This document shows, piece after piece, positions 3,757 to 7,029 of a stretch of DNA of 64,000 nt. The DNA is from an uncultured Chloroflexia bacterium. GTDB lineage: Bacteria > Chloroflexota > Dehalococcoidia > Dehalococcoidales > RBG-16-60-22. How positions within the stretch are numbered: position 1 is the first letter of the stretch; the number at the start of each line of letters is the position of its first letter. The DNA is taken from the NCBI GenBank assembly GCA_963727315.1, contig CAVSFE010000002.1, positions 139,674 to 203,673 of the forward strand, written 5' to 3'. A program made the position numbers and the translations under genes. Under the pieces are notes generated by a model. That model was not told where the DNA came from, did not search any database, and saw only the letters and a program-made list of their open reading frames with translations.

Positions 3757-6700
3757 ATGGCTCACGAAGTATTTATCTGCTATGCCAACCAGGATAAAAC
3801 GGTTGCTGACGCCATCTGTTCCAAGCTGGAGGAAAGCGGCGTCCCGTGCTGGATAGCCCCGCGCAACGTAGCTATTGGCCAAAAATTTACCGAAGCGATT
3901 ATGGGGGCGATTTCCCAATGCCGCGTCATGGTCCTGGTCTTTTCGGCTAACTCCAACGAATCGGCGTATTGTATCAACGAAGTACACACGGCATTCAACC
4001 GAAGAACCAGCATCATTCCCTTTATCATCGATGCCAAGGTCCCTTCCGGTGAAATGGAGTTTTATCTTCAAAGTATACAGTGGTTCGATGCGCAGAAGCC
4101 GCCCCTGAAGCAGCACTTACCGCGACTGGTCGCTGAAGTGAAACAACACCTGGCCCAGGTGGCCGCCCGGGAGGAAGTCGCCGCCAGAGAAAAGGCGAGA
4201 CGGGAGGCCGAAGAAACCGCCAGGGAGAAGGCAAAACGGGAGGCTGAGGAAACCGCCAGGGAGAAGGTAAGCCGGCAAGCCGAGGAAACTGCCAGGGAGA
4301 AGGCAAGACAGGAAGCCGAGGAAGCCGTTAGAGAAAAGGTAAAACGAGAAGCCGAAGAAGTCGCCAGGGAAAAGGCAAGAGAAAAAGCCGAGGTAATTGC
4401 CAAACAAAAGGCAAAGCAAGAAGCCGAAGAAATTGCCGGGGAGAAGGCAAGACGGAAAGCCGAGGAAGTCGCCAGGGAAAAGGCGGGGCGGGCCGCCGAA
4501 AAAGTCGCCAGAGCGCAAGCAAAACAGGAGGGCGAAGCCCAGGAAAGGGCCAGGCGCGAGGCAAAAAGAATAGCCTCCGCCGGGATGCCCACCCCATGGC
4601 TAAAGAAAATAATCAAGTCCCGATGGTCATGGGCCGGGGCAACGGTGGTTCTGGTGTTTGTCTTGATGGCAATAATCGTGAGACCGCACGGAACGACAGG
4701 CCCGGCGGACGCCGAGCAGTCCTATAACGCCGGGGTTACCCTCCTCTCCGAAGGTAAATACGACGAGGCCATCGCCGAGTTGGATAAGGCTATTCAGATA
4801 GACCCCAACTACGTCCAAGCCTACCACGCTCGGGGGCTGGCCTATTCTAATAAGGGTGAGTACGAAAAGGCGATTCTCGATTTGGAAAAAGCCCAGGGGC
4901 TGAATCCCGGTATTATCGTGGACCCGGGCTATGCCGTCGTCTACTATAACCTGGGGCTTGACAACTACAAACAGGAGAAATACGACCAGGCGATTACCGA
5001 TTTCACCAGGGCTATCGAGCTGGACGGCAACTACGCCGATGCCTATCACTTCCGGGCGGACACTTATCTCTATCAGGGAGACTATGATAAAGCCATTGAG
5101 GGTTTTAGCAAGGCCATCGGCCTGAACCCCAATTACTATTATGCCTACTACGACCGCGGTATCGCCTACTATCAAAAAGGGGAATACGAAAAAGCCGTCG
5201 CCGACCTCACCAGTGCCATCGGAATTAAGCCTGACGAGGCGGATTTTTACATCTTTCGCGGGCGCGTTTTGGTTAAGATAGGTCAATATGACGGAGCGCT
5301 AAACGACCTCGCTAAAGCCCAGGGACTGAACCCCGGTATCGTCGTAGACCCGAGTTACGCCGTAGCCTACTATGACCTGGGACGGGTCAATATCGATAAC
5401 GCTAACTACGACCAGGCGATTGACGATTTGACCAAAGCCCTGACGATAGACCCGACCATTAACGTCGACCCCAAATTCGCTAATGCATATTATAACCGGG
5501 GACTCAAGTACTCCGGTAGCGGTCAATATATCCAGGCGTTCGCCGATTTTGATAAAGCCCATAAGCTAAATCCGGCGATGAACCTGGATTCCGCCTACGC
5601 TGCGGCTTATAGCGTCCGCGGACTGGCTTATTCCGGACTGGGCCTTTACGACCAGGCGCTTGCCGACCTGGACCAGGCTCTCTCGCTGGACCCGGGTATT
5701 AAGGTGGACCCCGGCTACGCCAAGGCTTACAACCTCCGGGCGAATGTGTATAAAGGCAACGGAGAAAATGACCTGGCTTTAGCTGACTATACCAGAGCTA
5801 TCGAGCTTGACCCGGATAATGCCGGTTATTACTTCGAACGCGGTAATGTCTATAACGCCGAACAGAAATCTGATCAAGCATTAGCTGATTATAACAAAGC
5901 CATCGAGCTGGAGCCAAACAACGCATCCTACTATGGCCAGCGGTTCTGGATCTATTGGGATAAAATACAGTACGACCTGGCGTTAGCTGATGCCAGCAAG
6001 GCCATCCAGCTCGATTCGGATAATGCCATGTATTACAATGAACGTAGTGTTGTTTACGGTGGTAAAAATGAATTCTCACTGGCGCTGGCTGACTCGAATA
6101 AATCCATCCAGCTTGACCCCAGTAGAGCCGACTCTTACACTCAGCGGGGCTCTGTCTATAATGGCTTGGGCCAGAACGACTTGGCTTTAACCGATTACAA
6201 CAACGCTATCCAGCTGGACCCGAATTATGCTTTAACTTACTTCTTCCGGGGCTCAACATATCAATTTAAGGGCGAAAACGGCCTCGCTATTATCGACTAC
6301 GCCACATGCGTGGTGGTCTCCCAGGTACCGCTTTGGGCTCAGCAGGCGGAACAGAAGCTATATGACCTCGTGCTAAAGGACCTGGACAATGCGGTCACGC
6401 TGCACCCCAATGATGCCAATGCCTACGCCAATCGGGGAAATGCCTACTGGAATCAAATAGGGAGAGTTTATCGGGATATCACCGGCGGCGAAGCCAAGGG
6501 TATGGAAGCATTTGACCTTGCCATCGCTGACTACACTAAAACCATCGCGCTGGAGCCAAACAATGCTATGCGCTACTCTAGCAGGGCGGCTGTTTACATG
6601 GAAAGAGGGAAAAGCGATTTGGCGCTGGCCGACTGCAATAAAGCCATCCAGCTAGAGCCGAATAATTCTAACCTCTACGGCTCACGGGGTATCACTTATG

Positions 6701-7029
6701 GGTCCTTGCAGGAATACGACCTGGCGCTGGCAGATTTTAATAAAGGCATCCAGTTAGACTCGGGAAACGCTTTTCTTTACGATTGGCGGGGCAACTTATA
6801 TGATTTTGCCCTGGGGAAAAATGACCTGGCGTTATTAGATTATAATAAAGCCATCCAGCTAAATCCCAATATCACTTTCTTTTATTATGACCGGGGCAGG
6901 TTATATGCGGAAACGGGTAAAAATGATTTAGCCAGACCCGACCTTGAGAAATGCCTTGAACTGGCCCAGGCTCAGAACGACCCCTGGATGATTCAAAGGG
7001 CGCAGCAGGCGCTCGACCAGCTTAAGTGA
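3757..7029 (+). CDS. TIR domain - charged coiled coil - single TM helix - about 20 TPR repeats
   Basis: EVFICYANQD...WIAPRNV...SAYCINEV...IIPF is a TIR domain with the conserved Glu; EKAR/EAEE repeats; hydrophobic WAGATVVLVFVLMAIIV; repeated AYxxRGxxYxxxGxYDxAxxDxxKAIxLDP units. ATG at 3757 preferred over TTG at 3751. Confidence 0.9.
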   Translation: MAHEVFICYANQDKTVADAICSKLEESGVPCWIAPRNVAIGQKFTEAIMGAISQCRVMVLVFSANSNESAYCINEVHTAFNRRTSIIPFIIDAKVPSGEMEFYLQSIQWFDAQKPPLKQHLPRLVAEVKQHLAQVAAREEVAAREKARREAEETAREKAKREAEETAREKVSRQAEETAREKARQEAEEAVREKVKREAEEVAREKAREKAEVIAKQKAKQEAEEIAGEKARRKAEEVAREKAGRAAEKVARAQAKQEGEAQERARREAKRIASAGMPTPWLKKIIKSRWSWAGATVVLVFVLMAIIVRPHGTTGPADAEQSYNAGVTLLSEGKYDEAIAELDKAIQIDPNYVQAYHARGLAYSNKGEYEKAILDLEKAQGLNPGIIVDPGYAVVYYNLGLDNYKQEKYDQAITDFTRAIELDGNYADAYHFRADTYLYQGDYDKAIEGFSKAIGLNPNYYYAYYDRGIAYYQKGEYEKAVADLTSAIGIKPDEADFYIFRGRVLVKIGQYDGALNDLAKAQGLNPGIVVDPSYAVAYYDLGRVNIDNANYDQAIDDLTKALTIDPTINVDPKFANAYYNRGLKYSGSGQYIQAFADFDKAHKLNPAMNLDSAYAAAYSVRGLAYSGLGLYDQALADLDQALSLDPGIKVDPGYAKAYNLRANVYKGNGENDLALADYTRAIELDPDNAGYYFERGNVYNAEQKSDQALADYNKAIELEPNNASYYGQRFWIYWDKIQYDLALADASKAIQLDSDNAMYYNERSVVYGGKNEFSLALADSNKSIQLDPSRADSYTQRGSVYNGLGQNDLALTDYNNAIQLDPNYALTYFFRGSTYQFKGENGLAIIDYATCVVVSQVPLWAQQAEQKLYDLVLKDLDNAVTLHPNDANAYANRGNAYWNQIGRVYRDITGGEAKGMEAFDLAIADYTKTIALEPNNAMRYSSRAAVYMERGKSDLALADCNKAIQLEPNNSNLYGSRGITYGSLQEYDLALADFNKGIQLDSGNAFLYDWRGNLYDFALGKNDLALLDYNKAIQLNPNITFFYYDRGRLYAETGKNDLARPDLEKCLELAQAQNDPWMIQRAQQALDQLK
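4162..4565 (+). repeat. degenerate 36-bp (12-aa) coding tandem repeat, about 11 units, forming a coiled-coil linker
   Basis: Recurring GCCAGGGAGAAGGCAAxACGGGAxGCCGAxGAAxCC encoding AREKARREAEET-like units. Confidence 0.8.

Follow-up and report, generated by a model that had tools for sequence, protein, structure and literature searches.

A predicted membrane-spanning TIR protein and its AAA+/RyR gene partner in an uncultured Chloroflexia bacterium

Can a bacterium harbor a receptor laid out like a Toll-like receptor (TLR), and which protein would such a receptor address? This question is raised by an open reading frame (ORF) at positions 3757-7029 of a 64,000-nucleotide stretch of contig CAVSFE010000002.1 from an uncultured Chloroflexia bacterium, which is termed the window hereafter and in which all features discussed below lie on the forward strand. 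An initial annotation of this DNA had described the product as a TLR analogue possessing a cytoplasmic TIR domain, a single transmembrane (TM) helix, and a TPR solenoid outside the membrane. Comparison with relatives and related genomes indicates that the TIR gene is not stand-alone and constitutes half of a two-gene unit together with the AAA+/RyR gene lying upstream of it. The reading preferred here, to which a probability of about 0.55 is assigned, is that the two genes would form a Thoeris-like signaling pair whose TIR protein is a transmembrane receptor, with the TPRs placed outside and the RyR-AAA+ partner reading an NAD-derived signal.

Architecture and predicted topology of the TIR protein

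The gene (ATG 3757, stop 7027-7029) encodes 1090 amino acids (aa), and its domain order and single TM helix were confirmed as first described. The N-terminal sequence MAHEVFICYANQDK is not hydrophobic and does not resemble a signal peptide, as the initial annotation had stated, and the TIR domain was likewise correctly placed at the N-terminus, where it is found with a conserved C-terminal helix at aa 3-135 (3763-4161) and where the Pfam family TIR_2 (PF13676) covers aa 5-114 with 81.3 bits against a cut-off of 28. An E/R/K/A-rich helix composed of 12-aa repeats (aa 136-280, 4162-4596) comes next and leads into the basic juxtamembrane segment TPWLKKIIKSR (4597-4623), which lies within the family motif K..LLK[RQ]WW[LF]W[AS]G. 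The sole strongly hydrophobic 19-mer of the protein, WSWAGATVVLVFVLMAIIV (aa 290-308, 4624-4680), has a mean Kyte-Doolittle value of 2.32 versus 1.53 for the runner-up segment, together with a simple summed insertion energy of -1.2, and it coincides with the hydrophobic helix that had been located at about 4627-4680 behind the residues LKKIIKSR. Four Lys/Arg and no acidic residues are present in the 15 residues upstream of this helix, and one Lys/Arg and two acidic residues in the 15 residues downstream. From about aa 320 to 1085 (4714-7011) the chain is filled with TPR families (TPR_1 E 2e-117 in Pfam), which run on toward the C-terminus as had been anticipated; a simple regex count gives about 21 units with a spacing of 34 or 40 residues, which are predicted to be extracytoplasmic.

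The topology was judged from hydrophobicity, flanking charge, and comparison with relatives. Proteins sharing the TIR domain, the charged helix, and the TM helix were gathered by a search with aa 1-330, and a related-locus search with a five-sequence TIR alignment provided 80 loci of this TIR subfamily from several phyla. A single TM helix is located at about aa 150-270 in approximately 68 of the 80 loci (about 85%). Lys and Arg are richer on the TIR side of the helix in 19 of 21 close homologs and the asymmetry is reversed in none (means 5.05 versus 1.24), and 67 single-TM relatives from many phyla display a positive-inside split of 38 versus 19 (p ~8e-6). The C-terminal parts differ widely among the TIR-helix-TM relatives, including SBP_bac_5, Peripla_BP_6, DctP, CarboxypepD_reg, PD40/TolB, LysM with PDZ, FGE-sulfatase, 3-keto-disaccharide hydrolase, WD40, and TPR; these post-TM domains are mostly of extracytoplasmic types, and many of them are preceded by a Pro/Thr-rich linker. 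Further Peripla_BP_6 and PPC-type repeats follow the TM helix in related genomes, and the closest relatives with the same membrane-proximal TPRs run on into LVIVD/beta-propeller repeats or a 3-keto-disaccharide-hydrolase domain. The positive-inside bias and the extracytoplasmic-type domains of the relatives bear out the orientation proposed in the initial annotation, and a predicted topology with the TIR domain inside and the TPRs outside is well supported by the sequences. Because of this predicted N-in/C-out topology and the types of domain that follow the TM helix in the relatives, the comparison with TLRs stands as an architectural analogy.

A complication for the topology arises from the multi-TM relatives P0003, P0011, P0016, and P0018, in which crude counting yields an even number of hydrophobic segments and would thereby place the solute-binding domains inside; the flanking charges of the same proteins agree with an odd number of spans, and with the orientation predicted here, only on the condition that the weak NWWWLxPVxLG..GGIISW segment does not cross the membrane. 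All four carry a repeated membrane module that ends in NWWWLxPVxLGxxGGIISW...NWRxA and has basic residues on both sides, and it is this module that decides the side of the solute-binding domain. In a further relative with an SBP_bac_5 ectodomain, P0007, a zinc ribbon (YCPKCG...FCPKCG) is situated between the charged helix and the TM helix.

The segment between the TIR domain and the membrane had been annotated as a charged coiled coil of about 130 aa that could drive dimerization. The charged region is real but longer, extending from about aa 123 to 280 (about 150 aa) with a 36-nt (12-aa) tandem repeat at 4181-4529, and a dimerizing coiled coil was rejected on its heptad occupancy and its lack of a 3.5-residue periodicity. 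Charged residues make up 53% of the segment and large hydrophobic ones (LIVMFYW) 8%, the best heptad register holds 5 hydrophobic and 20 charged residues among 42 a/d positions, and the periodicity signal appears at 4.0 residues, with none at 3.5. Dimerization by a coiled coil is accordingly not upheld, since a hydrophobic seam is missing and the charge-pair signature of an ER/K helix is found instead, with 36 opposite-charge i,i+4 pairs versus 20 +/- 3.4 in shuffles and no i,i+3 excess. On these sequence features the segment looks like an ER/K single alpha-helix (SAH). It ranges in length from about 70 to 200 aa across close homologs and the wider family lacks it, having short linkers instead, so it would represent a lineage-specific spacer. 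SAH domains occur in myosin VI/X, caldesmon, and others, and the present segment resembles them in composition, i,i+4 charge pattern, absence of a hydrophobic seam, and variable length among homologs, whereas here the predicted helix would form a stalk that links an enzyme to the membrane in a bacterial receptor-shaped protein; we know of no bacterial receptor in which an SAH occupies such a position.

As for the TIR domain itself, Glu75 (CINEV) falls at the position of the catalytic Glu when aligned with Roq1 (CLEEL), a plant TIR, and both Glu75 and the CWxAPRD motif are invariant in alignments of 13 and of 71 relatives. The AlphaFold2 model of the domain has a predicted local distance difference test (pLDDT) score of 91.3, and its top 50 Foldseek matches are all TIR domains, including Hydra TRR-2 (Toll-related receptor 2), SPARTA TIR-APAZ, MAL, MyD88, SARM1, plant TIRs, and AbTir, while the ThsB models of PADLOC match it weakly (E 1.3e-3 to 3e-3). 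Judged from sequence and model, this is a catalytic-type TIR of generic character, close to no single characterized family. Since the catalytic-type Glu is kept, enzymatic signaling of the Thoeris kind appears likelier than adaptor scaffolding in the TLR style. A TIR-domain adaptor is not evident in the genome, whose only other TIR gene (G000:C2:1060536-1060949, locus L002, outside the window) encodes a 483-aa SEFIR/TIR protein. That gene directly adjoins one for a 368-aa protein whose C-terminal nuclease domain is of the Shedu SduA kind, and the two represent a separate candidate defense pair.

The AAA+/RyR gene and its linkage to the TIR gene

The two genes together occupy a 6.1-kb accessory module (about 950-7067), which is an insert relative to congeneric genomes. 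In two of these (G002:C163 and G003:C131, loci L094 and L095) an empty site is found, where the counterparts of window 3-949 and of about 7068/7130 onward are 20-80 nt apart; because the congeneric genomes join these flanks, the two genes appear to be gained or lost as one presence/absence unit. The GC content of the insert is 53.6%, versus 56.4% for the window.

The partner gene (1048-3660) encodes 870 aa, in which an N-terminal region of about 430 aa is followed by an AAA+ ATPase domain and two RyR (PF02026) repeats. In Pfam the RyR family is matched in two stretches with 76 bits against a cut-off of 27.4 (E 2.7e-21) and the AAA family with E 1e-4, and a profile search of the PDB returned Repeat12 (R12) of RyR1-3 and a Bacteroides RyR-like protein, the matches covering the RyR repeats only. 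The AAA+ domain extends from Walker A (GPPGSGKS, aa 451-458) to Walker B (VFWDEFD, aa 508-514) at 2398-2589, and both motifs are invariant in the partner alignment. Repeat 1 (aa 709-790, 3172-3417) contains H720, F723, and H745, with Asn762 at the Asp position, and repeat 2 (aa 793-868, 3424-3651) contains H805, Y808 (Trp in homologs), W817, H830, D847, and R848. Full-length partner homologs with 52-68% identity are encoded beside TIR-TM genes in loci L014, L063, L032, and L074. Of 64 RyR repeats encoded next to TIR-TM genes, 61 retain the first His and 62 an aromatic residue at +3, and the Asp position is occupied by Asp in 26 and by Asn in 32; the full residue set is retained by repeat 2 of the AAA-type and cyclase-type partners.

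A possible function for these repeats is offered by a 2026 preprint, in which phage RyR-domain proteins were reported to bind or cleave the TIR products 2'cADPR and 3'cADPR, that is, forms of cyclic ADP-ribose (cADPR), and to contact the ligand via His, Trp, His, and Asp residues common to RyR Repeat12 (PMC13232231). The partner resembles the phage RyDEP proteins and RyR Repeat12 of that study (PMC13232231) in that both of its repeats belong to PF02026 and repeat 2 shows the His / aromatic(+3) / His / Asp pattern. RyDEP is viral, whereas the partner repeats are cellular, arranged in tandem, and fused to an AAA+ ATPase here and to channel-like/RCK, cyclase, or RelA_SpoT parts in relatives; in addition, the catalytic Asp is exchanged for Asn in repeat 1, and the partner RyR is genetically linked to a presumed signal-making TIR, unlike RyDEP, which opposes TIR.

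The linkage extends beyond the window. When the neighbors of the TIR gene were compared with every fetched locus, only the AAA-RyR gene proved to be conserved. In 26 of the 80 loci a RyR-domain ORF is found no more than 6 kb from the TIR gene, and in 19 the distance is at most 400 nt. Among 61 related genomes, a TIR of this kind is present in 5 and PF02026 in 7, all 5 being among the 7 (Fisher p 3.5e-6), and the TIR and RyR genes are adjacent in each of the five TIR-bearing genomes. The RyR partners fall into four classes, namely an N-terminal region with AAA+ and two RyR repeats as in the window, a 2-TM channel-like part with TrkA_N/RCK and RyR, RyR with TPR-S and a nucleotide cyclase, and RelA_SpoT with TPR, SLOG, and RyR. 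Varied outputs attached to RyR follow the pattern of a sensor domain, and interchangeable outputs that share a sensor-type domain and sit beside a presumed signal-making enzyme are characteristic of second-messenger systems.

Two of these partners merit separate description. In an Abditibacterium metagenome-assembled genome (MAG), the partner L061:4215-6095 combines two TM helices, the canonical K+ filter sequence TTIGYGD, a TrkA_N/RCK part, and a RyR tandem domain at the C-terminus, and is located about 1.75 kb downstream of a gene for a 381-aa TIR-subfamily protein in which a scan found no TM helix; the filter region is degenerate in the other 2-TM channel-like/RCK-RyR members. In a Dehalococcoidaceae MAG, L015:2099-4639 encodes an 847-aa protein with RelA_SpoT, TPR, SLOG (LSDAT_prok), and RyR parts and lies next to a TIR-helix-multi-TM gene, so that two candidate sensor domains for ADP-ribose-type signals occur in a single protein, the N-terminus of which matches PDC-S33 in PADLOC.

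The TIR-TM genes paired with RyR carry TPR (window, L090, and L025), PPC (L063), ConA-like (L074), 3-keto-disaccharide hydrolase (L017), or Sel1 (L031) ectodomains, and the closest TIR/AAA-RyR pair (63-65% identical) possesses a different ectodomain, CarboxypepD_reg, after a frameshift in the charged repeat. This pair is found in locus L014 (Dehalococcoidales bacterium SPRUCE 182), which coincides in contig position with G020:C27, as L063 (Chloroflexi bacterium RBG_16_56_11) does with G011:C22, and both genomes belong to the family of the window. Since the ectodomains differ while the TIR domain and the partner stay constant, the sensor part is exchangeable, and some genomes hold two to three paralogs. 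At L014:5288-6090 and downstream, the reading frame of the TIR homolog ends behind the charged repeat, and a TM helix, a Pro/Thr linker, and CarboxypepD_reg domains are encoded in a different frame; the break is either a real frameshift, which would make it a pseudogene, or an assembly error inside the repeat.

Where a RyR gene is missing, the recurrent neighbors are DUF4231/SLATT proteins, further TIR genes, and a 498-aa protein with sub-threshold SLATT matches. This conserved 498-aa protein is encoded 29-77 nt downstream of the TIR-TM gene at L020:7969-9462 and about nine similar loci (Acidobacteriota and one Verrucomicrobiia MAG) and exhibits a SLOG-like N-terminal motif recognized by eye, sub-threshold matches to DUF4231/SLATT_3, and two C-terminal TM helices. 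On these features it probably represents another effector class for the TIR family.

The remaining elements of the site are less conspicuous. A promoter-like site TTGACT-17-CATAAT (961-989), a consensus match only (10/12), lies inside the insert before the AAA-RyR gene, and the 96-nt gap between the two genes (3661-3756) contains a weak promoter-like site (3680-3708) and no plus-strand terminator-like site. Downstream of the module, the stretch 7068-7937 holds a promoter-like site (7068-7097) and, behind it, a NarL-type response regulator (likely start GTG 7143). The regulator was rejected as the partner: GTG 7026, which overlaps the stop codon of the TIR gene, is an unlikely start, the receiver domain begins from GTG 7143 behind the promoter-like site, and the gene belongs to the conserved flank of the empty sites and is not conserved beside relatives. 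The right insert junction (7057-7101) carries a short duplicated motif, with TTATTATTGTGTT just before the -35 hexamer of the response regulator and CTATTGTGTT at its -10 region; one copy is present at the empty sites, and the motif may be the scar of an insertion or deletion event. The flanks of the window consist of housekeeping genes.

A proposed relay and its alternatives

Beyond the architecture, the steps comprising ligand, clustering, TIR product, RyR binding, and AAA+ output are ones that we infer. The ER/K helix, with about 150 residues at roughly 1.5 A each, would hold the TIR domain about 20 nm from the membrane as a monomer, and this spacer would keep the TIR domains apart until the receptor is clustered. 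A ligand on the TPR ectodomain would cluster the receptor, and the approximated TIR domains could then switch on NAD+ cleavage or cyclization, as in other TIR enzymes. The RyR tandem domain of the partner would bind the ADP-ribose-derived product and might hydrolyze it in repeat 2, whereby the AAA+ ATPase and the N-terminal domain of the partner would be controlled. Conflict or defense sensing is regarded as the most likely biological role of such a relay, at slightly better than even odds.

Several observations weigh against this reading. A RyR gene within 6 kb is missing from 54 of the 80 loci, so pairing is frequent and not obligatory, and roughly half of the RyR genes next to a TIR gene are encoded on the strand opposite to it. 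The N-terminal 431 aa of the partner match no Pfam family even at E up to 5, and the AlphaFold2 model of the partner is too poor to use (mean pLDDT 57.7). PADLOC assigned no known defense system to either gene or to the three other partner classes, save PDC-S33 for the RelA_SpoT type, and the locus does not lie in an obvious defense island. To our knowledge, phage defense offers few precedents for a sensor placed outside the membrane. Furthermore, the match of repeat 2 to the ligand-contacting His/Trp/His/Asp of RyDEP and RyR R12 (PMC13232231) was mapped by pattern via RyR R12 and not by direct alignment with RyDEP.

Of the competing explanations, the one that survives best retains the same relay and gives it another purpose: receptor-type "TIR cyclases" would tune ion flux, cyclic nucleotides, alarmone, or AAA+ remodeling via an NAD-derived messenger, and immunity would play no part. 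The SBP_bac_5, Peripla_BP_6, and DctP ectodomains are typical of nutrient sensors, the RCK with 2-TM channel-like part, cyclase, and RelA_SpoT outputs are regulators, and housekeeping genes flank the locus in the window. Against these stand traits typical of conflict systems, namely the patchy distribution (5 of 61 related genomes), the presence/absence polymorphism within the genus, the two to three paralogs in some genomes, the swaps of ectodomain between close TIR modules, and the SLATT-type neighbors of some members. Such ordinary environmental signaling is possible, and it is considered clearly less likely than defense.

Many bacterial TIRs, such as those of SPARTA, TIR-STING, and AbTir, act by NAD+ depletion. 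The TIR protein might thus itself be the effector, in which ligand-induced clustering would lead to NAD+ depletion and to growth arrest or suicide, while the RyR protein would be an off-switch that sequesters or hydrolyzes by-product cADPR isomers. In keeping with this scheme, RyDEP-type RyR domains are hydrolases or sponges (PMC13232231), the His and Asp of the catalytic dyad pattern are still present in repeat 2, and a nearby RyR gene is missing from 54 of the 80 loci. However, the fusion of RyR to 2-TM channel-like/RCK, cyclase, RelA_SpoT, and AAA+ parts follows a sensor-on-effector pattern rather than that of a simple scavenger, other family members pair with SLATT-type effectors, and Asn takes the place of Asp in about half of the RyR repeats, which together render this explanation unlikely.

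Two further explanations are given very little weight. A non-enzymatic TIR that recruits TIR adaptors after coiled-coil dimerization, in the TLR style, is suggested by the receptor-like layout and by the presence of Hydra Toll-related receptor 2, MAL, and MyD88 TIRs among the best structural matches, but it is very improbable in view of the invariant catalytic-type Glu, the single other TIR gene of the genome (SEFIR/TIR next to a Shedu nuclease), the helix without a hydrophobic seam, and a conserved partner that is a RyR-domain protein and not a TIR protein. Equally improbable is a wholly cytoplasmic protein whose hydrophobic segment is not membrane-inserted: soluble TIR-TPR defense proteins are known (E. 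coli TIR-II, PMC11350192; actinobacterial group 6, PMC7075850) and TPR, Sel1, and ankyrin repeats can work in the cytoplasm, but the segment is the sole strongly hydrophobic stretch with a favorable insertion score, its equivalent occurs at the same place in about 85% of the relatives, and solute-binding, LysM, PD40, PPC, and LVIVD domains and Pro/Thr linkers follow it in relatives, with the charge asymmetry in addition. Those soluble proteins (PMC11350192; PMC7075850) are likewise large, with an N-terminal TIR followed by many TPRs, yet they lack a TM helix and their TPRs are cytoplasmic, whereas in the product of ORF 3757-7029 a TM helix separates the TIR domain from the TPRs, which other members of its TIR subfamily replace with domains of clearly extracytoplasmic kinds.

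Relation to described systems and biological meaning

With the Toll-like and IL-1 receptors, the protein shares a solenoid-repeat sensor predicted outside, a single TM helix, a cytoplasmic TIR, and an expected activation by ligand-induced TIR approximation. In contrast with the TLRs, its order is reversed (N-terminal TIR, no signal peptide), its ectodomain consists of TPRs and not LRRs, a long predicted ER/K helix intervenes between the TIR domain and the membrane, the TIR domain is probably enzymatic rather than an adaptor scaffold, and MyD88-type partners are absent. From the earlier description of a TLR organization in reverse, with TPRs for LRRs, the architectural analogy and the single TM helix are therefore retained, while the lack of an LRR ectodomain and of a type I layout precludes TLR membership; the likeness is an analogy.

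A resemblance is also seen to Thoeris, in which a TIR gene with a catalytic-type Glu also adjoins a gene combining a nucleotide-sensor-type domain with a variable output; here too the TIR gene is genetically linked to a candidate effector gene, and some TIR-family members pair with SLATT/DUF4231 proteins as in Thoeris type VII. Thoeris types I-XI comprise a ThsB TIR plus a signal-activated effector, type X being a TIR with an ion channel (bioRxiv 10.64898/2025.12.03.692087). The described ThsB proteins are soluble cytoplasmic sensors, whereas the TIR protein here is predicted to span the membrane with an exchangeable extracytoplasmic domain, so that in place of a soluble TIR recognized by ThsB models a TM helix plus ectodomain is found; moreover, the candidate sensor of the partner is a RyR (PF02026) domain, on which that survey is silent.

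In the literature searched, nothing was found on cellular RyR-TIR systems. A 2025 survey listing 29 putative Thoeris types, including TIR with an ion channel, mentions neither RyR domains nor membrane-spanning TIR proteins (bioRxiv 10.64898/2025.12.03.692087), according to a 2024 survey bacterial TIR systems seem to lack membrane features of the TLR type (PMC11350192), and a TIR classification contains no prokaryotic TM class (PMC7075850). The pair probably converts a cue from outside into an NAD-derived signal within the cell, by a pathway undescribed in that literature. More tentatively, and at somewhat less than even odds, it may be one member of a widespread and as yet unpublished bacterial class of outside-in receptors, in which a swappable ectodomain would control a TIR enzyme and RyR domains on varied effectors, from the AAA+ ATPase here to K+-channel-like proteins, cyclases, and RelA/SpoT elsewhere, would read its NAD-derived product.

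Described bacterial TIR systems sense infection inside the cell, whereas ORF 3757-7029 and many of its relatives are receptor-shaped TIR proteins with swappable outer domains. The RyR partner turns what had been a lone "receptor" into a testable two-gene signaling unit of small size (6.1 kb), and the link suggests that cellular RyR domains could plausibly serve to read ADP-ribose signals made by TIRs, tying bacterial immunity-type signaling to the long-debated relationship between cADPR and the ryanodine receptor in animals. If the proposed relay is true, bacteria would possess a TLR-shaped receptor, and a reconstitutable prokaryotic counterpart to the disputed cADPR-ryanodine-receptor link would become available.

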